This document shows positions 45,346-57,048 of a stretch of DNA of 64,000 nt, piece by piece. The stretch covers positions 1-64,000 of the forward strand of contig CAWFQK010000001.1 in the NCBI GenBank assembly GCA_963817955.1, read 5' to 3'. The first letter of the stretch is position 1. The number at the start of each line of letters is the position of its first letter. This DNA comes from an uncultured Gemmatimonadaceae bacterium (lineage in GTDB: Bacteria > Gemmatimonadota > Gemmatimonadetes > Gemmatimonadales > Gemmatimonadaceae). A model generated the notes under the pieces. That model saw nothing but the letters and a program-made list of their open reading frames with translations. It did no database searches and was not told the DNA's origin. Position numbers and translations under genes: made by a program.

Positions 45346-46806
45346 ATGAGCGAGGCATACGATCTGGTCGTGATCGGCGCCGGGCCCGCGGGCGAGAAGG
45401 GCGCAGCGCAAGCTGCCTACTTCGGGAAGCGTGTCTGCATCATCGAGCGCGCGCCCAGACCCGGCGGCGCCGCGATCAACACCGGCACCGTCCCATCCAA
45501 GACCCTGCGCGAAACGGCGCTCTACTTCTCGGGTCTGCGCCAACGCGGCCTGTACGGCGTCGATTATCACGTCAAGCGCAATATCACGATTAGCGACTTC
45601 ATGTTCCGCGAGCGCTCGGTGATCGACGCCGAGTGGAAGCTGATCGACGAGAACATCCGCACGCACGGCATTGCGCAGATCCAGGGCTCGGCAAGGTTCA
45701 TCGACCAGCAAACTGTGGAGGTCGCGCGCTACGGGACCGAGCCGCGGCAGATAACAGGCCAGGCGTTTCTCATCGCCACAGGATCGGCGCCGTTGCGGCC
45801 GCAAGGGGTCGTTGTGGACGGTAGCGTGATCGTGGACAGCGACTCGTTGCTCCGACTCGAGAAGATTCCGGCGTCGATGATCGTCGTGGGCGGGGGCGTG
45901 GTCGGATGCGAGTACGCGTGCATCTTCGCCGCACTCGGCGTGCACGTGTCGATCATCACGTCTCGCCCGCGACTGTTGGCGCATCTCGACGCCGAGGTCA
46001 GCGACGCGCTACGACAGCAGATGACGTCGCGGCTCGGCGTTCAGGTGCACGTCGGCACCGATATCGCCCAACTGGCGGTGGAGAATGGGCGCGCCGTGAT
46101 CACGCTCGCCGGCGGCGATCAACTGAACGGCGATTGCGCGCTGTACTGCGCGGGACGCACTGGCGCATCGAACGGACTTGGTCTGACAGAACTTGGTGTC
46201 CACACCAATTCGCGCGGCTTCATCGAAGTCGATGAGCATTATCGCACCGCCGTGCCGGGGATCTACGCGGCCGGCGACGTGGTCGGCTTCCCGACGCTTG
46301 CGTCCACGTCCATGGAACAGGCACGCGTTGCGATCTGTCACGCCTTCGATCTGCGGTACAAGCAGGCAATGGCGAACGTGATTCCCTACGCCGTCTACAC
46401 GATCCCGGAGATTGCCACGGTCGGCATGACGGAAGAGCAGCTCAGAAGCAGAGGCATCGATTACGAGATCGGCCGCGCGTCGTTCCGCAACAACGCACGC
46501 GGCCAGATCATTGGAGATCTCGACGGATTCGTGAAGCTGCTGTTCCGGTCCGAGGATCAGAGCCTGTTGGGCGCATCGATCGTCGGCGAGTCCGCGGCCG
46601 AATTGATCCACGTCGCGATGGCCTGCCTGTCGTTCGGCGGAACGATCGACTTCTTCATACAAAGCGTATTCAACTATCCATCGCTCTCAGAGACGTACAA
46701 GTACGCGGCGTACGACGGACTGCAGGCGCTGGCGCGCCGTCACGCCAGGCAGCCGGGGCTGCCGAGCGAGGACAGGCACAATGTGGATTGGACTCCGGAT
46801 CTCTGA
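45346..46806 (+). CDS. sthA: Soluble pyridine nucleotide transhydrogenase
   Basis: GAGPAG, GTVPSKTLRE with no redox disulfide, LASTSMEQ, FNYPSLSETYKYAAYDGL. Confidence 0.9.
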   Translation: MSEAYDLVVIGAGPAGEKGAAQAAYFGKRVCIIERAPRPGGAAINTGTVPSKTLRETALYFSGLRQRGLYGVDYHVKRNITISDFMFRERSVIDAEWKLIDENIRTHGIAQIQGSARFIDQQTVEVARYGTEPRQITGQAFLIATGSAPLRPQGVVVDGSVIVDSDSLLRLEKIPASMIVVGGGVVGCEYACIFAALGVHVSIITSRPRLLAHLDAEVSDALRQQMTSRLGVQVHVGTDIAQLAVENGRAVITLAGGDQLNGDCALYCAGRTGASNGLGLTELGVHTNSRGFIEVDEHYRTAVPGIYAAGDVVGFPTLASTSMEQARVAICHAFDLRYKQAMANVIPYAVYTIPEIATVGMTEEQLRSRGIDYEIGRASFRNNARGQIIGDLDGFVKLLFRSEDQSLLGASIVGESAAELIHVAMACLSFGGTIDFFIQSVFNYPSLSETYKYAAYDGLQALARRHARQPGLPSEDRHNVDWTPDL

Positions 46807-46835
46807 CTGGCCGGATGTCGCCGGCTGCGCCGTAG

Positions 46836-47396
46836 TCAGTACAGCTCCTCAGACAGAAACGGCGCCAGCGCGTAGCTGACGAGCACTTCGTACGCGCGCT
46901 GCCGGTCGACGAGTCCGCGGGTGAGAATGCCGACCGCGCCCTTGCCGCGTTTCGTGTCATGCTCGCCGATCAGGCGATCCATTGCATGGCCGAGTTCCAT
47001 GCCACCGCGAATCAGCCCGGCGACGGCCGGCGGGAGCGGGACGCACAGGGATCCACCTACCCCTTGGCGTCCGTCGCGCGACACGATTGCGGCCCAGGCA
47101 CAGGTGCGCATCGAACCATCGGGCTGCTCCACGACGCCACCTTCAATGCCGACGCCGAGGTCCGCGTCGAGGGCTTCGCGTGCAGCGATGGCGCGGGCGA
47201 GTGCGCCTCGGATCGTTTGCTCGTCACCAACCGGTTGCTCCGGTACACCCGACGCGACGTTCAGGCCCTGGACCACGGCCAGCGGCGCGACGGCGCCGAG
47301 CACGGCGCGCACCGCGCCAATCTTCACCGGGTTGGTGGAACCCACTACGATCGTCTTGTGCGATGCGAGCGGCGGTGGCGGAACGTCAGCAGTCAC
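46836..47396 (-). CDS. yjjX: Inosine/xanthosine triphosphatase (YjjX/DUF84)
   Basis: VGSTNPVK, SGVPEQP, GIEGG, ELGHAMD, GAVGILT. Confidence 0.88.
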   Translation of the reverse strand: MTADVPPPPLASHKTIVVGSTNPVKIGAVRAVLGAVAPLAVVQGLNVASGVPEQPVGDEQTIRGALARAIAAREALDADLGVGIEGGVVEQPDGSMRTCAWAAIVSRDGRQGVGGSLCVPLPPAVAGLIRGGMELGHAMDRLIGEHDTKRGKGAVGILTRGLVDRQRAYEVLVSYALAPFLSEELY

Positions 47397-47570
47397 AATC
47401 AATAAGTATCGTTTCGTTCACAATTCACGTTGCGACGGGCGAGAAATGTACCTCGCGTCGTCACACTCCGTTAGATGGCGACGTAAGAACCGTAAACGGT
47501 CGTGCCGCCGCCGGCTTCGCTTGCTGCGAGTCCGTCCGCGAGATATGCTTGACGTCCCTTGTCGAACACG

Positions 47571-48236
47571 ATGCTGACGATCACTCCGTCCTCCGACTCC
47601 GCCGCGGTACCACTCGCCGGTTCCCATTCGACGACCGACCAGTCGCCGTTTGTGTTCATCGGAGAACGCCTCTGGCTGGATTTCGTAAACTGTGAATACG
47701 GGCTGCGTCGCCGGGACGCGCTGAATGATTTCGAGACGCTCGTGCGCTGGCTCGAGGTCGCCGGGGTGCTCGACGTGGATCGCGCCAGTGGAATCCGCCG
47801 GAGGGCCGAGCAGCAGCCGGCTGGTGCAGGAGTGGCGCTCATCGAAGCACGGCGCGTGCGCACCGCCCTTCGGTCGCTCGCCGAGCGCGGCCCAATGAGC
47901 GAGCGGATGCGCAACGAAGGACTCGTCGAGATCAATCGGGTGCTGGGCCGTAGCGCGGGTACGCGCCGCGTCGACCTGCGCCAGGACGGCACGTTCATCC
48001 GCTCCTTCGTACCGGTGGGCGATGCGTTCGCCGGTCTCATGATCCCCATCGTCGAGTCGGCCGCCGACGCACTCATTCTCGGCGAGCTGTCGCGCGTACA
48101 CATCTGTGCGGACCCACGCTGTCAACGCGTGTTCTTCGATGGCACCAAGAATGGACGCCGCCGCTGGTGCGACATGGCCACCTGTGGCAACCGCGCCAAG
48201 GCGGCACGCCACCGGGAGAAGCTGAAGTCGCAGTGA
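47571..48236 (+). CDS. ABATE/CGNR zinc-finger protein
   Basis: LWLDFVN, CADPRC..VFFD.TKNGRRRWCDMATCGNRAK. Confidence 0.93.
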   Translation: MLTITPSSDSAAVPLAGSHSTTDQSPFVFIGERLWLDFVNCEYGLRRRDALNDFETLVRWLEVAGVLDVDRASGIRRRAEQQPAGAGVALIEARRVRTALRSLAERGPMSERMRNEGLVEINRVLGRSAGTRRVDLRQDGTFIRSFVPVGDAFAGLMIPIVESAADALILGELSRVHICADPRCQRVFFDGTKNGRRRWCDMATCGNRAKAARHREKLKSQ

Positions 48237-48748
48237 GCCCGGTTGTCGAAGTCCTGCGGACCTACCTCGAGCTGCGCTCGCTCGATCAACTCCACGGTAC
48301 GCCCGCCCGCGACGACATCCGATTCGTGCAGCGCGTTGGCATTTCCGTAACGGAATACCGGCGGCTCTATCTGCTGGTCGGCGACCAGTGGTATTGGCAC
48401 GATCGCAATCGCTGGTCAGACGATAAGCTCGCGGCGTATCTGGCTGATCCCAGTGTCTCTGTCTGGGAGGCGCTGGTCGGCGACGACAGTGCTGGCTATT
48501 TCGAGATTCAGCGCGACAGCGACGACTCGGCGGAGATCGCGTACTTCGGCCTTGCGAGCGAGTTCATTGGCCGCGGACTCGGCAAGGTCATGCTGGCACG
48601 GGCCGTTGAAGAGGCATTCGCGCTGGGCGTGCCGCGCGTCTGGCTGCACACGTGTACACTCGACTCTCCGCACGCACTACCGAACTACCTGGCGCGAGGG
48701 TTCGAGCCGTTCAGGCAGGAGACGTTCGTGGTGCAGCTTCCGGAGTGA
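48233..48748 (+). CDS. GNAT family acetyltransferase
   Basis: YFGLASEFIGRGLG, VWLHTCTLD, NYLARGF. Confidence 0.9.
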   Translation: MSPVVEVLRTYLELRSLDQLHGTPARDDIRFVQRVGISVTEYRRLYLLVGDQWYWHDRNRWSDDKLAAYLADPSVSVWEALVGDDSAGYFEIQRDSDDSAEIAYFGLASEFIGRGLGKVMLARAVEEAFALGVPRVWLHTCTLDSPHALPNYLARGFEPFRQETFVVQLPE

Positions 48749-48875
48749 TCGGGGGCAGCGGTTGGGGCTACGCAACATCCAATGTGCGACTTCACATGTC
48801 GTCGGTGCTACGCTGCAAGCGTCGCGGTTGTTTTGCGCGCTTCCGCAGCGTATAGTGACCACCTCTTGCCGTTAG

Positions 48876-49340
48876 ATGTCACCAGATGATCGTGCGATGG
48901 CAGAAACTCCATTCGGTTTCAATCCCCAATCGGACGCGGGCTCCGGCGACGCGCTCTTGCAGCTTCGTCGCGAGGATGTCGCCGCCCTCGCCGCGGTCTA
49001 CCTCCGGGATAGTCGTGCCCCGCGCCAATGGGCGGGAGTTGCTGCCGGTCTTGGCGGCCTTGCTCTTGGTCCGCTCCTCATGACGCTGGGCGCGCATCTG
49101 GGATGGCCGGCCACCCTTGAGCCGTATTTCTTCTTTGGCGGCTGGGCGATCATGCTGACTTGCGGAGTAGCCGTCTGGCGGCGGGAACGGGTGCTACGCT
49201 TGCGCTACCGGTTTCAGTGCCCGTCGTGCGATACCGCACTTCTCAACGGCATCCGCGACCAAGCCGGGCTCGCACGTGTTGAGTTGATCATCGCCACAAG
49301 CACGTGCCCGCATTGTGGTTCACGGATTCTCGCGCCGTGA
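48876..49340 (+). CDS. Cassette-borne 2-TM protein with a C-terminal zinc ribbon
   Basis: Two TM segments, CPSC...CPHCG; bounded by GTTAGAT (48871) and ATCTAAC (49342). Confidence 0.7.
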   Translation: MSPDDRAMAETPFGFNPQSDAGSGDALLQLRREDVAALAAVYLRDSRAPRQWAGVAAGLGGLALGPLLMTLGAHLGWPATLEPYFFFGGWAIMLTCGVAVWRRERVLRLRYRFQCPSCDTALLNGIRDQAGLARVELIIATSTCPHCGSRILAP

Positions 49341-49341
49341 C

Positions 49342-49535
49342 ATCTAACGAGGATGTAGAATTGGTCCCATCGCTAGTTCTGCGATCGCGATGTTGAAAAC
49401 TCGACGTCGCCCGAAGCTACAGGATCGACGATCCTCACCTCGGGAATGATCTGACGACAGCCAAATTCGGAGGTCGCGGAATGGTGGGGACATATTCTAC
49501 ATCGTCAACATACGCTGAAGCCGACCGCGTTAGAC
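49342..49535 (+). repeat. attC-like foldback element
   Basis: ATCTAAC at the start, GTTAGAC at the end; internal arms GATGTAGAAT/ATTCTACATC and GTCCCA/TGGGAC; longer than a typical attC. Confidence 0.6.
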
Positions 49536-49589
49536 AACACTCCAAGCATCGCGACAACGAAGGGACTGCCGGGCCGAGGCCCTCTCTCG

Positions 49590-50042
49590 ATGACCGTTGA
49601 GCGCATTGAAGGCGAGGCGATCCAAGCGCTGCTCCCCCACCGCTATCCGTTCCTTCTCGTTGACCGCATCGATGTCATCGAGCGCGGCCGGCATGTCGTC
49701 GGATCGAAACAACTCTCGGCTGGGGAGTGGTGGTGCGCGGGAGCAGCGCAGACTTCCATCTTTCCATTCGGTTTGGTCGTCGAGGCGCTCGCGCAGACGA
49801 GCGGCGCAATCGTCCGGGATCTAACCGATGGCGAGGGCGGCGCCATTGCTTACTTCATGGGCGCGAACCGCGTTCGGCTACGCCGACCTGCGCATCCGGG
49901 CGAGGAACTCACGATGACCGTTGTCCTTCGTCAGTGGCGTCGCGGACTCTGTCGCGCATATGGTGAGGCAACCGTTCATGGCCACCTCGTGGCGGCCGCG
50001 ACACTGACAACGATGGTGCGCGTGTTGTCCGACGAAGGCTGA
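49590..50042 (+). CDS. FabZ-like hotdog-fold protein
   Basis: LLPHRYPFLLVDRI and EALAQ; lacks FxGHFP. Confidence 0.85.
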   Translation: MTVERIEGEAIQALLPHRYPFLLVDRIDVIERGRHVVGSKQLSAGEWWCAGAAQTSIFPFGLVVEALAQTSGAIVRDLTDGEGGAIAYFMGANRVRLRRPAHPGEELTMTVVLRQWRRGLCRAYGEATVHGHLVAAATLTTMVRVLSDEG

Positions 50043-50063
50043 ACTTGTCGAGCGATTTATGGA

Positions 50064-50120
50064 AGCTCGCTACGCTCGCATTCAATTGAGCTCGCTTGCG
50101 AGTTAGCTCGGGCGTCAGGC
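50064..50120 (+). repeat. attC-like right half (family B, copy 1)
   Basis: AGCTCGCTACGCTCGCATT...TAGCTCGGGC-GTCAGGC; similar to 52714-52770. Confidence 0.6.
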
Positions 50121-50155
50121 ACCTACCAATACTTCAATCGCGATTGGAGATCCTG

Positions 50156-51071
50156 TTGCGTCGAGGTCGTACGGCCTTGCTCGTCCTGCTCTGGACTGCC
50201 GTACAGTTGGGCTGTCGGGCGGGCCACCTAAACAACAGCAGCGGTCTGCCGGCTGGCGAGGCGCCATCCTACCGCATCGACAGCGGGTCGGTGCGCGTCA
50301 ATGGCACGCGTCTCTTCTACGAGGCAGCCGGGAGCGGATCGGTCGTCGTCCTCCTTCACGGCGGGAACCTCGACCGCCGCATGTGGGACCCGCAGTTCCT
50401 GCCGCTCGCGCGCGAGCACCGGGTCATCCGCTACGACCTGCGCGGCTACGGGAAGTCGGGACCGGCGGACGCGCCCTTCCAGCCACGAAGACCTGCGCGC
50501 CCTGCTCGAAGCCCTCGGCGTCGTGCGCGCGTCCCTCGTCGGCCTCTCGGGTGGTGGGCGCATCGCCATCGACTTCGCGCTGGCCCACCCGGAGATGGTG
50601 AATCGCCTGGTGCTGGCCGCGCCCGGGCTCAGCGGCTGGCAGTACTCCACGAGTGACACGGCGTATTTCCCGGAGGCACGGCGCGCGCGCGACCGCGGCG
50701 ACGCGGCGGGCCTAGGTCTCGCATGGCTCGGGAGCGCCTATCTGCTGCCCGCGATGGAGCACCCCGAGCTGGTGTGGCGGCTCCGGGAAATGGCGGCCGA
50801 CAACGGCGGGAACTGGATGGGCCTATTGAAGCACGGCGACCTCGAGCGCGTCGCCGACCCGTCTGCGCTCCATCAGACGGCCATGCTTCGGGCGCCGACC
50901 CTGCTCGTGGTCGGCACCCGGGACGTGCCAGACATTCAGGCCATCGCCGACACCCTGACGGCCCACGTCCCCGGTTTGCGGCGCGAGACCTTCGTCGGAG
51001 TCGGGCACCTCGTGAACATGGAGCAGCCCGAGCGCTTCACGACGCTGGTCCTTGACTTCCTGCGCCGGTAG
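50156..51071 (+). pseudogene. Alpha/beta hydrolase split by a +1 frameshift near 50480
   Basis: The first frame has [15 protein letters not shown]; the +1 frame continues [25 protein letters not shown]. Confidence 0.8.
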
Positions 51072-51267
51072 CTGCCTCCCAGGAGGCGTCATCTGTCACG
51101 TCCGTTAGAAAAGACTCGTTGAGGGGCACGATCAATAACACGGCCCCTCGCTGTTACATCTCCCGCCACCATTCCCACGTCGAGCGTCTGGAGCACGCGG
51201 GCCGGCATGGTCCGCACGCGCCTTGATTTGACTCGTTCGCAGCTGAACTCGGGCGCGAGCTAGCCGC

Positions 51268-51306
51268 ATAGTAACGCTTGACGTTATGGTCGCGACGCGT
51301 TACTAT
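51268..51306 (+). promoter_or_regulatory. higBA promoter with a palindromic operator
   Basis: TTGACG-N17-TACTAT; inverted repeat ATAGTAACGC/GCGTTACTAT. Confidence 0.8.
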
Positions 51307-51311
51307 TCGTT

Positions 51312-51593
51312 GTGATCAAGAGCTTCGCCGCCCACGACACCGAACGCCTCTTTGGACGGGAGCCCGTCCGGCGCTATCCGGCCGAGCTTCAGCGCACCAT
51401 GCTCCGCAAACTCATTGTCGTGGACGCGGCGGAGCAGCTCGAGGATCTCCGGAGCCCGCCGGGGAATCGCCTGGAAAAGCTCCACGGCGACCGGGCCGGC
51501 CAGCACAGCATTCGCATCAATGACCAATGGCGGATCTGCTTCCGCTGGAAGGATGGCAATGCGTACGACGTCGAGGTCGTTGATTACCACTGA
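51312..51593 (+). CDS. higB: HigB toxin (RelE/ParE superfamily)
   Basis: PPGNRLEKLHGDRAGQHSIRINDQWRICF...VDYH. Confidence 0.95.
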   Translation: MIKSFAAHDTERLFGREPVRRYPAELQRTMLRKLIVVDAAEQLEDLRSPPGNRLEKLHGDRAGQHSIRINDQWRICFRWKDGNAYDVEVVDYH

Positions 51594-51600
51594 GGCCCAC

Positions 51601-51906
51601 ATGGCGCACCGCAAACTGACTCCCATCCATCCCGGCGAGGTACTGGCTGCCGACTTCCTCGAGCCGCTGGGCTTGTCGCAGTATCGCTTGGCCAAGGATA
51701 TCAGCGTGCCCGCGCGACGTGTCAACGAGATCGTGCATGGCACGCGGGCGATCAGCGCCGACACCGCGCTGCGGCTCGCGCGGTATTTTGGCACGAGCGA
51801 TCGCTTCTGGCTGAACCTCCAAGCCCGATATGATCTTGAAGTCGAACGCGATCACCTGGGTGCCCGCCTCGAAAAGGAAGTTCGAGTGTTCGACCGAGCT
51901 GGCTAG
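51601..51906 (+). CDS. higA: HigA antitoxin (HTH)
   Basis: PIHPGEVL, ISADTALRLARYFGTS..FWLNLQ..YDL. Confidence 0.95.
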   Translation: MAHRKLTPIHPGEVLAADFLEPLGLSQYRLAKDISVPARRVNEIVHGTRAISADTALRLARYFGTSDRFWLNLQARYDLEVERDHLGARLEKEVRVFDRAG

Positions 51907-51909
51907 CGA

Positions 51910-51929
51910 GCTAACGAGGATGTAGGAAA
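51910..51929 (+). repeat. GCTAACGAGGATGTAGGAAA element end (family A)
   Basis: Identical to 52481-52500; shares 15 nt with 49344-49358. Confidence 0.85.
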
Positions 51930-52059
51930 GGCCGTTCGGAGGTGATGGCGCGCGGCCGCGGAGATGCCGTCGGACGTCGGAACCTTCGGCGGCTACGGTT
52001 CGGTGTGGGAGGGTTCTAATCCGCGCCGGGCGGGCATTAAGTTGAAGTCGGAGGGTCGA

Positions 52060-52257
52060 ATGAAATACAAAGTTGCGGTGCGCCACGACGAGGAAGGCTA
52101 CAGTGTCTCCGTCCCAGGCTTGCCCGGTTGCTGGTCGCAAGGCGCCACCGAAGCGGAAGCCGTGGACAACATCGCCGATGCGATTCGGGAATACCTGGCC
52201 GCGCGCGACGAGATGATCGGCGGCAGTGACGTGCGCGAGATCGAGGTTGCCGTCTAG
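52060..52257 (+). CDS. hicB: HicB family antitoxin (short form)
   Basis: EGYSVSVPGLPGCWSQGATEAEAVDNIADAI. Confidence 0.92.
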   Translation: MKYKVAVRHDEEGYSVSVPGLPGCWSQGATEAEAVDNIADAIREYLAARDEMIGGSDVREIEVAV

Positions 52258-52260
52258 CGC

Positions 52261-52473
52261 GTGGGAAAGATTCCCGGCGTCAATCATCTCCACGCCATCC
52301 GTGCGCTCGAGAAAGCGGGCTTCCGCATCGTTCGGGAAGGCAAGCATACCGTGATGTCGGACGGTGAGCGTATCCTCACTATCCCTCGGCACAACCCCGT
52401 CAATGCCTTCACGATGGGCGGTATCGTACGCGATGCCGGGTTGACCGCCGACGAGTTTCGCAAGCTCCTCTGA
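52261..52473 (+). CDS. hicA: HicA family toxin
   Basis: ALEKAGFRIVREGKH..M...LTIPRH...IVRDAGLT. Confidence 0.92.
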   Translation: MGKIPGVNHLHAIRALEKAGFRIVREGKHTVMSDGERILTIPRHNPVNAFTMGGIVRDAGLTADEFRKLL

Positions 52474-52480
52474 GCGGCCG

Positions 52481-52500
52481 GCTAACGAGGATGTAGGAAA
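52481..52500 (+). repeat. GCTAACGAGGATGTAGGAAA element end (family A)
   Basis: Identical to 51910-51929; 7 nt after the hicA stop. Confidence 0.85.
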
Positions 52501-52568
52501 ACCCCAATTGGCCGGCGAGCCGACCGCGCCGCGTCGTCGATGCCCGGCGGCGGCGGAACTGGTCACGC

Positions 52569-52692
52569 GTGTGGCGGCGCCCGGAGGGCAAGACGCTGGA
52601 GTTCAAGCGCGATCTCTCCTCCCCTGACGACGCCTTGAAGACCCTAGTCGCCTCCGCGAATACGGCCGGCGGCACGTTGCTCGTGGGAGGGG
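52569..52692 (+). pseudogene. N-terminal fragment of an AlbA_2/Schlafen-domain protein
   Basis: EGKTLEFKRDLSSP..LKTLVASANTAGGTLLVG; similarity then ends shortly before an attC-like repeat. Confidence 0.75.
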
Positions 52693-52713
52693 TGCATGCG
52701 AGCCAACTTCCGG

Positions 52714-52770
52714 AGCTCGCTGCGCTCGCATTTTGTTGGATGTGCTCGCAGGCTAGCTCGGGCATTTGGC
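52714..52770 (+). repeat. attC-like right half (family B, copy 2)
   Basis: AGCTCGCTGCGCTCGCATT...TAGCTCGGGC-ATTTGGC. Confidence 0.6.
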
Positions 52771-52862
52771 GGACAACAGCCACGCACGACAGGTCCGACC
52801 AGCCGAGGGCGCCGAGCCCCGCGCCGTGGCCTCGGGTTCGACCCGGCATTATACCTCCAAGC

Positions 52863-53081
52863 ATGACAAAGCTGATGGAACAAGCGCTGCGCGCCGTCGC
52901 CGAGCTGCCCGAGGCTGAGCAGGACGCGCTTGCCGTTTCGATTCTAGCCGAAGTGAAGGGCGAGGAGGCGTGGGATCGCCAGTTTCAGGACTCCGCGCGG
53001 CAGCTCGAGCACCTAGCCGACGAGGCGCTCAGCGAACACGGCGAAGGTCGCTCCACGCCGCTCGACCCTGACGCGCTGTAA
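52863..53081 (+). CDS. Putative antitoxin-like protein (orphan)
   Basis: MTKLMEQALRAVAELPEAEQDALA...WDRQF...LADEAL.EH.EGRSTPLDPD resembles small proteins encoded upstream of RelE/ParE-like toxins. Confidence 0.7.
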   Translation: MTKLMEQALRAVAELPEAEQDALAVSILAEVKGEEAWDRQFQDSARQLEHLADEALSEHGEGRSTPLDPDAL

Positions 53082-53419
53082 CGCCCGATCGGTCCGCTCA
53101 TCTCGCACTCGCGGACGACCACGCGGTTTCGTGAGCGGACTACGACCGTTTGCTGGCGACCTTGCGCTAGGTTCGGAATCACGAGCCGCTCGCGGGCAAA
53201 CGGAACCGCTCGCCGGCAAGCACGAATCCCTCGCGGTCAAAGACGAATCCTCGCAAGCGACACGGGACCTCGCGGCCGTGTCGGAGGTTTCACGGCTCGT
53301 CTAGCTCGGATGCCGGCGTGCTCACGATCAAGGGCTCGCCGTGCCGGAGGGATCCAGCCGTTCAGGCAGCAGACCCTCCCCGTAAAGCGCCGTAAAGGCA
53401 GAACGACTCACCTACACGC

Positions 53420-53881
53420 CCCCCAGCCTCCCAAATCCCCCCCGCAGCCCGCCGAAAAACACCCGTGGTCTTGCGGATTGCAAACGTAACCCGCCGGAAC
53501 GCCCCCGTAGACCAGCTGATCGCGCCCGTAGGTCGCCGGAACACAAAAGTATCGCTAAAATCTGCTCCGATATGACGCAAATCGACACAAGGATGCGCCC
53601 GGAACGTCCCCGTGGTGCGCCTGTTCGTGCCCGTAGGTCGCCTGTGCGTGCCCGTGGTGCGCCTGTTCGTGCCCGTAGGTCGCCTGATCGACTCCGTCAT
53701 GTTGCAAATTGCGAAAAGTATGGGCCGAATCGAGGTGAGGGAGCAACTGTTCGCCCCCGTGGGGCGACTGAACGGGGTGCACGGGCACCTGTTCGACCCT
53801 ATCGAGTACCGAGGCGAGGCGAGCTTGCCGCGGAACAAGGTGCAGGCCCGCCTGATCAGCCCTATTGGGCAGCTGGCAGTC
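53420..53881. repeat. Degenerate 21-bp tandem repeat tract
   Basis: Core units CCCGTGGTGCGCCTGTTCGTG / CCCGTAGGTCGCCTGTGCGTG at 53609-53692; register is kept at 53441, 53462, 53504, 53525, 53756 and 53861. Confidence 0.8.
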
Positions 53882-53914
53882 GTTCCAGACCGACTATCCT
53901 CGAACTAAGCGCGA

Positions 53915-56650
53915 CTAACCGCGCCGCCCCCCGCCCTTGCGCCCCTTACCGCCCGGCGCACTGAACCGACCGCCCGACTTTTTTCGCCGACCGGGGAACT
54001 CGGAGCCTGTGGCCTGGCGATGGTCTTTCAACTCTCCGCCCGCTTGGCGGGTGTGTCGCCCGCGCTTGCGATCGAGACGGTCGCGACGGTGATCATCCTG
54101 CGTCCGTTCGAGTTCGGAGATCTCCTGCGCCGTGAAGGGCCGGTCGAGTTCGGCCTGTAGTTCATCGAGTGTCGCCGCCCGCGCCGCGCCGCGGGCGCCG
54201 CGGGTCACGATGAACCGGAGCGGCCGATCGAGTTGCGGAAGCTCCTCGGGCGCCAGCGTGCGAGCCAGTTTCTCGGGAAGGCGCAGCCGCACCACGCCAA
54301 TGTTCCCGTCCGGGGTCTCTTCGACCTCGTAATGGATCTCGACGTCGCGATCGCGAATGGACGTCGACGTCGGCAGCGAGGCATAGCGGTCGCGCACTTC
54401 GCGCGGCACGATCTCGTCTACATCCACATGGACCGCCGTCTGACGGAACTCCGTCATCGAGCCTACAGCCGCGAGCTGTTGCTCGTAGAGTGCGGTCAGG
54501 TCGGCAAGGTTCAGCCTGGGCGTCTGTCCGCCCGACCGGCGATACGTCTCGCGCACTGCCTCGATCGCATCCTGATTCCGCTTCGCGCCCGGGTGTCGCG
54601 CGTCGCCCCGGGCCAGCGCTTCGGCGAGTACGTGGCGCGCGCGATCGGCAAGCTCCGGCGGAAATTCATCGATCGGTTCGATCTCGCGCTCGAGCTCGAA
54701 TCCGTGATACTGCACGCGGCGCCTGAGCACGAGCGGCGAGCGGCGACTCTCCGGATTGTAGACCAGCTCTCCTTCCATCACTACCGCGTGCTGGCGGAGC
54801 AGCTCGAACGGGATCTGCGTTCCCTCGATCGACGCGCGCGGGTTGCCGAACTTGTCGGCGAAGTAGCGTAGCTCGCCGGTAATCGGCCCCCAACTTCCAC
54901 AAACGCTCGTCTTCGATACGCGTGCGTCGTCGCCCGAGAGGGTCTGCTCGTCGATGACGAGTGTGAACGGCAGGTACGCGGCGAGCAGTTCCTGGAATGT
55001 GCGCAGCACGTCGTCGCCGCCGTTTGCCATGCGCGCGGGCAATGGCACTCCGATCGACCGATAGATGCTCGCCATGCCCAGCGCCGCGTCCTCGATCGAT
55101 TTCACGAGCGCGCCGCGGCGGTCCGCCCACCGCTGGATCTTCTCTTCGTCGAACAGATGCCGCGGCAGGCCGTACACTGTTCCCATGCGACCGGCGTGCC
55201 GGTAGGCCTCCGCATACAGATTGTACGCGGTGAGGTGGTCGCTGCCGGGCACGATCAAACCAGTGAGATCGCGCTCTTCGCGCGTCATGCGGTGCAACGA
55301 CTCCACGGAGCTCATCACGGCCAGGAAGGGCAGCAGCTCGTCACTGCCGTGCACCAGCAATTCGGCCCACGCGCGTTCCACCGGCATGGCTTCCACCGCC
55401 TTGCCATAACCCGTGAGCCGTCCGTGCTCCACGATGCCGCGCTCTTCCAGCAGCGCCAGCGCCTGCCGGTACGCCAGCTTGTCGAGTGGCACCGGGAGAT
55501 CCAGCTCGTCGGCGCGCACGCCCAGCGCCGCACAGGTGATGGCGACGCGCTCCGAGTCGCCCGCGAGCTGGAACTCCGGCTCGGTGGGCTGGAGGTGCTC
55601 GAACTGGATGTCGCGATCGGACAGGATGAAGACGCGTCCGCCTTCCACTCGGCCGTGCACGCGCCCCGCCATCTGCAGGATCTCGTTGGCGCCGAGGTGC
55701 TCCTGTGAGAGCACATTGCGCCCGCGGTCGATGGCGTTGAAGAACTTCTTGTCGTCGATGATCACCGTGTCCAGGCCGTGCACGTTGAGTGCGCTCTGGC
55801 CGGCCGCGGTCATGGCGAGGAAGTACGGTTTCTGCTCGCCGCCGTCGAGAAATGGGCGCAGGATGCGAATCGGCTCACCGCCATGATAGAACGCGGTGTT
55901 GATTCGCGGCGCCAGGTGCCGCACGTGCTCGGCGGCATCCTCGACACCGCGGCGCGTGGGGACGAACAACGCCACGCCGCGCTTCTGTTTCACGAGCTGG
56001 CGCAGAAACGCTTCATCGAGGAACGCCGGCGCCTGCTTGCGAATGACGCGCACCTGCGCCGCCTTCTTCGGGTCGAACTCGTAGACCTCGAGGACGTCCG
56101 CCGAGTTTAGATATTTGGCATAGAACGCCGGATTCACGGTTGCCGAGAGCCAGATGTAGCGGCAGCCGACCCGCTTGCCGAGGGCGAGGCACAGCTCGAG
56201 CTCCGCCGACGTCTGGTGGATCTCGTCGACGACGATGGTGTCGGTGGTGAGGATGTCGCCTTCCTCGAACCAGCGGCGCGCAATGCCCGTCGTGACGATG
56301 ATGACATTCCACGTGGGCGTCTCCGGCGTCGCCTCGCGCTCCCGATTCACGACGCCCACCTTGAGCTCCGTCGTGCCGAGGATCTCCTCGGCGATTGGCC
56401 GAATGGCGAGGGTCTTTCCCGTGCCAGTGCCGGCGACGATGCCGAAGCCTCGGCCGGAGCGCGCGAGCGCTCGCACGCGCGGGCCGTGGTGCTGTTCGAG
56501 ATAGGTATTGATGTGGAGTCCCACCGCGAGCTCAATGGTCTCGCAGGCCGCGCGCGTGGGCGCGATCACGATCACGCGGCCGGTGGCCGGCTCGCTCTGA
56601 ACGAAGGAATCGTGATCGGGGAGGTATGGATCGCGGACGTTTCGAATCAC
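53915..56650 (-). CDS. DEAH-box (HrpB-like) SF2 helicase
   Basis: GTGTGKT, DEIH, SAT, QMAGRVHGR; basic C-terminal tail. Confidence 0.88.
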   Translation of the reverse strand: MIRNVRDPYLPDHDSFVQSEPATGRVIVIAPTRAACETIELAVGLHINTYLEQHHGPRVRALARSGRGFGIVAGTGTGKTLAIRPIAEEILGTTELKVGVVNREREATPETPTWNVIIVTTGIARRWFEEGDILTTDTIVVDEIHQTSAELELCLALGKRVGCRYIWLSATVNPAFYAKYLNSADVLEVYEFDPKKAAQVRVIRKQAPAFLDEAFLRQLVKQKRGVALFVPTRRGVEDAAEHVRHLAPRINTAFYHGGEPIRILRPFLDGGEQKPYFLAMTAAGQSALNVHGLDTVIIDDKKFFNAIDRGRNVLSQEHLGANEILQMAGRVHGRVEGGRVFILSDRDIQFEHLQPTEPEFQLAGDSERVAITCAALGVRADELDLPVPLDKLAYRQALALLEERGIVEHGRLTGYGKAVEAMPVERAWAELLVHGSDELLPFLAVMSSVESLHRMTREERDLTGLIVPGSDHLTAYNLYAEAYRHAGRMGTVYGLPRHLFDEEKIQRWADRRGALVKSIEDAALGMASIYRSIGVPLPARMANGGDDVLRTFQELLAAYLPFTLVIDEQTLSGDDARVSKTSVCGSWGPITGELRYFADKFGNPRASIEGTQIPFELLRQHAVVMEGELVYNPESRRSPLVLRRRVQYHGFELEREIEPIDEFPPELADRARHVLAEALARGDARHPGAKRNQDAIEAVRETYRRSGGQTPRLNLADLTALYEQQLAAVGSMTEFRQTAVHVDVDEIVPREVRDRYASLPTSTSIRDRDVEIHYEVEETPDGNIGVVRLRLPEKLARTLAPEELPQLDRPLRFIVTRGARGAARAATLDELQAELDRPFTAQEISELERTQDDHRRDRLDRKRGRHTRQAGGELKDHRQATGSEFPGRRKKSGGRFSAPGGKGRKGGGRRG

Positions 56651-56679
56651 GCGATCACTGGAGACTTTGACAGTGCGCT

Positions 56680-57048
56680 CTACTCCGGAGGTCGTTTCGG
56701 AAAGAATGTCTGCGGCGGCCGCTTCACATCGGTGAATCCCTTGATGTTCGGGGGCAGCTTGGTCTTGTCGTCGCCCTTCGCCTTGGTCGAGTCGGAATAA
56801 TCATCCCCGAAGATCACGCGCGCATTTGCCGGACGGTTCTTCACTGCCGTCGGGCAGTCTGTTGCAGCGGGCTGCTGCGCCGCGGGCACATCATCGATCC
56901 AGATCCGGCACATGCCCTTTGGCGGCCGGGAGTCGGCCGGGATGGCCGGTTTTCGGGCGCTCTCCTTGAACGTCCGCTGCTGCGCCATGGCGGGCGCTGC
57001 AGTCGCGACGATCAGGCCAAATGTGAGTACCGTGCTGAACCGCGTCAT
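56680..57048 (-). CDS. Small exported hypothetical protein
   Basis: Signal peptide (APAMA-Q); IPADSRPPKGMCRIW...QPAATDC; GGAGG RBS. Confidence 0.75.
   Translation of the reverse strand: MTRFSTVLTFGLIVATAAPAMAQQRTFKESARKPAIPADSRPPKGMCRIWIDDVPAAQQPAATDCPTAVKNRPANARVIFGDDYSDSTKAKGDDKTKLPPNIKGFTDVKRPPQTFFPKRPPE

Follow-up and report, generated by a model that had tools for sequence, protein, structure and literature searches.

A 64,000-nt stretch of DNA (hereafter the window), which forms the start of contig C1 of an uncultured Gemmatimonadaceae bacterium (genome G000, 4.53 Mb in 9 contigs), contains a short array of integron gene cassettes between two housekeeping genes. The observations presented here probably reflect an eroding array that keeps the entry leader of this genome's integrons, has likely lost its integrase gene (intI), and has been hit in three attC recombination sites, each time at the AAC of the R'' core box, by a lineage of IS1182-family insertion sequences (IS) and miniature inverted-repeat transposable elements (MITEs) that probably seeks out the foot of the attC hairpin. 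The array is a textbook cluster of attC sites lacking an integron integrase (CALIN); the novelty is the attC-homing DDE transposon. As a pattern, the homing of this IS1182/MITE lineage to attC is well supported, and the mechanism outlined below is a proposal drawn from sequence comparison.

The cassette array, its leader and its attC sites

The first-pass annotation of the window had described a decaying CALIN between housekeeping genes, and this description holds, since the site is empty in relatives and the array contains matches to an attC model. The conserved left flank, outside the insert, is a GNAT acetyltransferase gene (48,233-48,748, + strand; Pfam PF00583), and the conserved right flank is a DEAD/DEAH-type helicase gene (53,915-56,650, - strand). 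From GNAT end to helicase end the distance is 5173 nt here, corresponding to an insert of ~5.2 kb that relatives lack. All 24 genus genomes drawn matched the region, and 19 loci were fetched besides the window's own. GNAT and helicase genes are adjacent in 16 of these 19 loci, with alignment ends 52-297 nt apart in 15 of them and 748 nt apart in one, where the helicase alignment ended early; among the remaining three, two have no GNAT match in the locus and one holds ~2 kb of other genes and no attC match. The cargo of the array was found in none of the 19 relative loci, and the signs that the annotation had named as telling against an array (the same cargo order in relatives and no attC model match) were not seen.

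The array opens with an attI-like integron leader (48,748-48,877, + strand), absent from the first-pass annotation, with a crossover point G/TT at 48,871-48,873 and a possible cassette promoter (Pc; TATAGT near 48,851); the leader was not flagged in a promoter scan, and Pc there is putative. Its bases 48,748-48,868 are 89.5% identical, in a 124-nt alignment, to the sequence that follows intI on contig C4 (C4:1374665). That gene (C4:1373624-1374562) encodes the single full integron integrase (IntI) of the genome, scores 414.6 bits against TIGR02249 (cut-off 265), has the RHRHY residues and is co-oriented with its array. The genome holds five copies of the leader; all five lose homology at the GTT of their first cassette, and the R' box of that cassette exactly complements its own R'' in three. 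The copies are nested at the left: one keeps the last 46 nt of intI, and others start 10 nt (one copy) or 100 nt (the window's copy) past the intI stop. Genome G012 has the same leader behind its own intI and was alone in matching in a leader search of 30 genus genomes. The leader is conserved next to intI and stops at the GTT of the first cassette, as an integron platform does, and its copies may be attI/Pc platforms left by eroded integrons; whole integrons appear to have eroded in this genome, because another leader copy retains the 3' end of intI. On contig C1, which starts 48.7 kb upstream of the array, searches by PF00589, TIGR02249, tblastn and blastn found no tyrosine recombinase or intI. 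The annotation's term 'integrase-less' is consequently correct for the locality and incorrect for the genome, and its suggestion of an array serviced in trans or orphaned narrows to one that could be serviced in trans, given a full IntI on C4 with the same leader behind it. The C4 IntI reads MIYTPVLNRGG where that of G012 reads MIYTHVLNRGG, a real change or a sequencing error. Behind another leader copy (C3:120532-122046; L017), the first 'cassette' consists of a recombinase fragment and another broken mobile gene, with GTTGAAC and GTTCAAC as its boundaries.

A bottom-strand covariance model of attC was built from 15 intact sites elsewhere in the genome, none of them adjoining the IS or lying in the window. 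Pairing holds in 86% of the cells of the model alignment, both sides have changed in 16 of 23 pairs, and slid controls give 24-36%; the fit is favoured by the structure having been drawn from the same 15 sequences. Across the genome the model matches 24 sites (15 of them training sites), and an unfiltered search of the window returns six matches at E<=1, which include three attC on the same strand, a palindrome at 51,269-51,305, and two matches outside the array (14.6 and 11.7 bits) that were taken as noise. The array contains one full attC, one collapsed attC and two half sites, all on the + strand. The full-length site, attC2 (50,027-50,120; 74.7 bits, E 4e-20), has degenerate core boxes (R'' GTCCGAC; R' GTCAGGC at 50,114) and shares 81.5% identity across 92 nt with one attC in the complete integron on C4. 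The remainder of attC1 (49,507-49,535) ends in GTTAGAC (49,529) and has lost its centre; collapsed to 33 nt including R'', it gives no model match. The distal half of a decayed attC lies at 51,160-51,261 (14 bits, E 0.13 in 64 kb), where 51 nt are 80-82% identical to intact attCs; its R' box, GCGAGCT (51,255-51,261), is two changes from the complement of the R'' of the higBA cassette that follows, and the C4 copy of higBA begins GTTAGCT. Another distal half (52,700-52,770, within a model match at 52,641-52,770 of 22.3 bits, E 0.00038) has the degenerate R' ATTTGGC and is 83% identical over 53 nt to C4:1394728. Collapsed 33-nt attC sites recur in the complete integron (C4:1378018 and C4:1387915), as if the centre had been lost between two L boxes.

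The core-like words listed in the first-pass annotation are all in place: GTTAGAT (48,871) at the start of the first cargo gene, ATCTAAC (49,342) 1 nt past its stop, GTTAGAC at 49,529 and GTCAGGC at 50,114. Words of the form GTTRRRY/RYYYAAC occur 8 times in the 4.6 kb of the array, or 1.75 per kb, against 0.9 and 0.66 per kb outside it in the window; with a density no more than about double that of the surroundings, heptamers alone are weak evidence, and the array call rests on the covariance model, the leader homology and the empty site. An Rfam search over 46,000-57,000 gave one irrelevant weak match and no group II intron RNA.

IS1182-family elements at attC in this and other genomes

Exact TAAC|GAGGATGTAG junctions occur five times in the genome, all behind a cassette gene: three in the window (49,345, 51,912 and 52,483) and two in the complete integron. 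The three R'' boxes concerned in the array, none of which had been recognized as carrying IS1182 ends in the first-pass annotation, hold one MITE and two truncated ends. The MITE (49,349-49,506, 158 bp) has IS1182-type terminal inverted repeats and is bordered by AAC at 49,346-49,348 and 49,507-49,509. It qualifies as a MITE in being short and gene-less, with the ends of an autonomous IS, a target duplication and related copies elsewhere (78% over 118 nt to the copy in genome G084); this genome has one copy. Directly behind the higBA R'' lies an IS1182-type inverted-repeat end (51,916-51,928), and the ~130 nt after 51,928 match no sequence fetched. The third is a 93-nt right end (52,487-52,579, - strand), which the copies of the complete integron match at 94% identity; it is fused, with a 3-nt overlap, to a fragment of an AlbA_2 gene. 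A near-whole element of 1620 bp at C4:1392183-1393802, whose right end forms one of the two junctions in the complete integron, contains a broken DDE transposase, which scores against NF033551 only in pieces; AAC flanks the element at either end, and an attC of 79.5 bits follows it. The sequencing runs listed with matching sequence were five of DNA, at small shares, and none of RNA. Their assembled contigs are short, stop short of the hydrolase frameshift and include no MITE-free or empty-site joint; one contig of 180 nt, possibly from the source sample itself, matches 49,305-49,484 without mismatch, which speaks against an assembly slip at the MITE junction. Elsewhere on C4 (1394778-1396340; L014 5779-7345), a transposase element with subterminal repeats, which we take to be IS110/IS1111-like, starts at the GTT of an attC, and a similar end flanks the IS1182 element in L086, L087, L102, L137 and L295, so that two attC parasites are stacked at one junction.

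Relatives of the element were sought by transposase protein alone, blind to the target, and were obtained from 19 of 401 genomes of the phylum and from 79 loci of a species-wide collection, representing Gemmatimonadota, Pseudomonadota, Myxococcota, Eisenbacteria and Actinomycetota. The 107 loci gave 104 candidate left ends and 97 candidate right ends, from which we removed 20 duplicates, 14 candidates with short flanks, 3 at contig edges and 5 that lack a repeat. AAC abuts 78 of the 83 left ends (TAAC in 71), the same triplet abuts 74 of 76 right ends, and a 3-bp duplication is present in 51 of 54 paired elements. A model search of 70 loci places the beginning of an attC 3-4 nt inside the element end at 44 of 69 long-flank right ends (43 at R', 1 at R'') and at none of 56 left ends. 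A hairpin test independent of the model is passed by 59 of 67 flanks and by 33 of 150 TAACG sites taken at random. Five genomes picked because they hold the element contain 19 repeat matches, of which 16 border on AAC/GTT, two on GAC and one on GCT. The target information is concentrated at positions -5 to +1. As controls, of ten more distant IS1182-like loci of the same hosts, four (one in this genome) show clear ends flanked by CTAG, with the rest unresolved and no attC model match in any of the ten, and chance 16-mer matches have AAC/GTT in only 3 of 80. A metagenome scan with the 16-nt MITE end was set aside, its 80 loci being chance matches with no second repeat.

The intact enzymes match NF033551 over nearly its full length and contain DUF772 and DDE_Tnp_1_6 domains, and 15 of 20 reach the 270-bit cut-off. 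Residues D141, D297 and E463, presumably the catalytic DDE triad, are invariant in 24 sequences. In a tree of 41 rows, made up of 34 of the 49 intact open reading frames (ORFs) and 7 rows that are partial or serve as controls, the enzymes flanked by AAC split from two CTAG ones with 100/100 support and long branches. Unannotated elements of 42% identity from Pseudoalteromonas in a plasmid collection (L302 3880-5718; L303 5584) abut AAC/GTT with weak attC matches nearby; their outermost end is the right one, and they seem to sit at R' in the same direction as the array, which makes a fourth arrangement. In L088 (107, 1888), attC bodies lie on both sides of a rearranged element without duplication, and in L075 (near 313) an element sits at the end of an earlier copy and reuses the recreated AAC.

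MITEs of the same family, 156-168 bp long, are found in other genomes. A pattern requiring AAC on both sides retrieved them from this genome and six others out of 401, its reversed control matching none, and four of the six others adjoin an attC model match. The target-blind search found one of 30 genus genomes (G429) with a MITE at the R' of a clear attC, and loci preselected for the IS yielded three more copies with AAC on at least one side. The interiors share short motifs and, apart from one weak partial match, find no counterpart in the non-coding termini of the full elements retrieved. Consensus folding of eight MITEs pairs the terminal repeats alone and shows no internal structure, and an RNA guide is consequently unsupported.

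In the proposed course of events, IntI would have built the array at attI behind the GNAT gene, and the left side, intI included, would then have been trimmed, as in other leader copies. The transposase, supplied by a once-intact copy, may recognise both the short (Y)TAAC|G word and the adjacent arm of the attC, cutting with a 3-bp stagger. The conserved triplet would be duplicated, the attC behind the element would keep its AAC, and the element end plus AAC would read as an R''-like box, as suggested by the C4 site behind the near-whole element, which still scores 79.5 bits. With its AAC retained in the attC, the element would spare genes and could travel with cassettes, either inside them (R'') or in front of them (R'). 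Later deletions would have removed most element bodies and attC halves, so that most junctions in the array have probably lost the ability to recombine; if any site is still active in trans, attC2 is the likeliest.

Cargo and borders of the insert

The cargo lies entirely on the + strand, as first annotated, and Pfam and NCBIfam matches confirm the FabZ-like protein, the hydrolase, higBA, hicBA and the AlbA_2 fragment. In cassette 1 (48,871-49,348), the R' GTTAGAT (48,871-48,877) overlaps the ATG at 48,876, and the stop TGA (49,338-49,340) is followed by one base and the R'' ATCTAAC (49,342-49,348); the ORF (48,876-49,340) encodes a 154-aa protein with CxxC pairs and 18 homologs at 45-90% identity. 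This protein has no family over cut-off in Pfam, NCBIfam or PHROGs, and the zinc ribbon named in the first-pass annotation appears as sub-threshold matches only. The cassette 2 gene (49,590-50,042) encodes a FabZ/FabA-like hot-dog protein, with a match to PF07977 over cut-off (55.8 bits) and a score against NF000582 (NCBIfam FabZ) of 109 bits, below the cut-off of 113. Cassette 3 (50,114-51,110) encodes an alpha/beta hydrolase in two reading frames, the shift near 50,485 being either real or a sequencing error; its attC is unrecognisable, and GTTAGAA occurs at 51,104. The higBA cassette (51,255-51,915; higB 51,312-51,593, higA 51,601-51,906, R'' AGCTAAC) encodes two proteins over cut-off, is 74-82% identical to the higBA copy in the complete integron, and has its own predicted promoter (51,278-51,306) inside the palindrome at 51,269-51,305, which is likely the antitoxin operator. 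The hicBA pair (52,060-52,486; hicB 52,060-52,257, hicA 52,261-52,473), also over cut-off, retains its R'' (GGCTAAC) and has lost its 5' cassette boundary. The AlbA_2 gene fragment (52,577-52,692) is 94% identical to a longer copy at C1:545737. The last conserved ORF (52,863-53,081, 72 aa) is followed by a broken reading frame (53,085-53,170). It has no family in Pfam, NCBIfam or PHROGs and no informative name among its 85 homologs, so that the earlier label of orphan antitoxin is only a presumption. The two toxin-antitoxin pairs probably slow the loss of the block.

The right border region of the insert contains a truncated copy (53,174-53,354) of a dispersed repeat family, of which 12 copies were lined up, two of them near other cassette arrays (C4:478462 and C4:1407400). 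A second dispersed family lies at 53,462-53,754, and both show a 21-nt periodicity. The whole insert is flanked by a 28-nt direct repeat (48,696-48,723 and 53,347-53,374, 25/28 identical), the first copy of which lies in the 3' end of the GNAT gene and the second of which consists of 8 nt of the dispersed repeat followed by 20 GNAT-like bases exactly at that repeat's cut-off. This direct repeat is possibly a relic of an insertion or of a deletion; it was dropped as an attL/attR pair of an island, because 8 bases belong to the dispersed repeat and there is no integrase. No transposase or element ends enclosing the whole insert were found. The convergent GNAT-helicase gap contains differing short hairpin repeats in relatives (L037, L038, L041, L046, L047) and appears to be an insertion hot spot.

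Alternative explanations and comparison with known systems

A number of observations speak against an attC-homing lineage and a lost intI. The genome's own transposase is broken, and the element behind 51,916 is known by its 13-nt end alone. The junctions in this genome lie at R'' with the right end outermost, and 43 of 44 classified relatives lie at R' with the left end outermost; the R''-using group in the tree (this genome's enzyme with the R'' user L083, L079 and L295) has only moderate support (84/99). Among hairpin-side flanks, 25 of 69 have no adjacent model match, and 8 of 67 fail a hairpin test that 33 of 150 random TAACG sites pass. The target word amounts to ~11 bits, with 2833 occurrences in the genome at the 10th-percentile score, uncorrected for the purging of insertions in genes. 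Five of the 20 intact transposases fall 0.2-2 bits below the IS1182 cut-off (268-269.8 bits). At the left side of the array, the window contains no intI remnant and the leader abuts the GNAT stop.

It is unlikely that the element merely has a short sequence preference (~YTAAC|G, on either strand) and accumulates at attC since the word occurs twice there in non-coding DNA, insertions elsewhere having been purged. The narrow span of target information (-5 to +1), the use of both R' and R'' and of both polarities, the reuse of AAC recreated by IS ends (L075) and a few flanks that are not attC-like (L102, L145, L278) would all be expected on that account, yet the genome has 2000 TAACG words against 24 model attC and all five junctions lie at cassette ends, R' is used 43:1 though both boxes hold the word, and the hairpin is always on the same element side (44 right ends, 0 of 56 left ends). 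Somewhat less unlikely, though still not favoured, is a block that never had intI at this position, its leader and cassettes having been moved or copied from a lineage integron into the convergent intergenic hot spot by rearrangement or horizontal transfer. Such a move would suit the lack of any intI trace, a leader that starts at the GNAT stop, the varied inserts of this gap in relatives, and the dispersed repeats and 28-nt direct repeat bordering the insert, and rearrangement is listed as a route to CALINs (Cury et al., PMC4889954); against it, another leader copy keeps the 3' end of intI, and the insert is not enclosed by a transposase or element ends. Insertion of the cassettes by IntI at an ordinary genomic GWT site without attI (the attG route) has been demonstrated in E. 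coli (10.1101/2022.09.11.507474) and would be compatible with a short array; it is highly improbable here and largely refuted, as the empty sites of relatives lack the 125 nt that precede the first GTT, and these 125 nt match the integron leader. Virtually no probability attaches to chance core-like words in an ordinary island, for which the heptamer density of merely ~2x background could be cited, since it is refuted by the 74.7-bit attC, the leader, the complementary R'/R'' and the cassettes common to the complete integron.

The eroding array, for which intI loss and attC homing remain the preferred explanation, resembles CALINs (PMC4889954) in having at least two attC on one strand, no nearby intI, a short array, an IntI elsewhere in the genome and IS inside. 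Half of CALINs lie in genomes that encode IntI elsewhere and 12% contain IS (Cury et al. 2016, PMC4889954), and routes of origin and IS content of CALINs have already been described (PMC4889954; 10.1101/2022.09.11.507474). It differs from them in keeping an identifiable attI/Pc-like leader and in having only one full-length attC, with the attC called by a model of our own rather than that of IntegronFinder; it is not a complete integron, no intI adjoining the array. The element resembles the IS1182 family (NF033551; IS1272/TnSha1, PMC4923244) in its ~510-aa DDE transposase with DUF772 and DDE_Tnp_1_6 and its terminal inverted repeats. IS1272 targets the foot of terminator hairpins that share no sequence consensus, removing part of the stem and leaving no duplication (PMC4923244), whereas the lineage described here hits the AAC/GTT of attC with a 3-bp duplication and the other IS1182-like elements of the same hosts are CTAG-flanked. 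The IS1111-attC group (ISPa21, ISPst6) comprises IS specialised on attC and mostly antisense to the array (PMC3001079, PMC11089894), and IS110/IS1111 elements have DEDD recombinases, subterminal repeats and an RNA guide (PMC11187229); the present element, in contrast, has a DDE enzyme, its repeats are terminal, it makes a duplication, and the interior of the MITE shows no conserved RNA structure. Group IIC-attC introns, which are retro-elements that encode a reverse transcriptase, are inserted after a cassette gene and before its attC, in the orientation opposite to the array (PMC3001079), a position and orientation shared by the element copies of this genome; unlike those introns, the element has inverted repeats and a DDE transposase, and the array contains no reverse transcriptase ORF or Rfam match to them.

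No account of IS1182 in attC was found in the full-text literature searched, and ISfinder/TnCentral, subscription journals, the Siguier 2015 review and supplements, which were not covered, may record it; the accessible portions of PMC9137128, PMC12444791 and PMC11089894 contain nothing on it. The attC specialists in the literature searched are RNA-guided IS1111 elements and group II introns only. Tentatively, and at somewhat less than even confidence, the widespread IS1182 lineage and its MITEs may constitute a third class of attC parasite, in which a guide-less DDE enzyme reads the hairpin foot and duplicates the triplet used by IntI, the site stays recombinable, the element rides cassettes, and sub-lineages have switched between the R' and R'' arms. 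The array is useful in that its retained attI-like leader shows one way in which CALINs arise. A plain DDE transposase with an attC habit would, if confirmed, be a further route to targeting these hairpins, and provides a simple, testable system for the choice of a structured target by DDE enzymes. An attC-homing IS would also account for attC sites that are overlooked or called in pieces in integrons from the environment, and, provided that the site remains active, the IS would spread through the integron's own shuffling.

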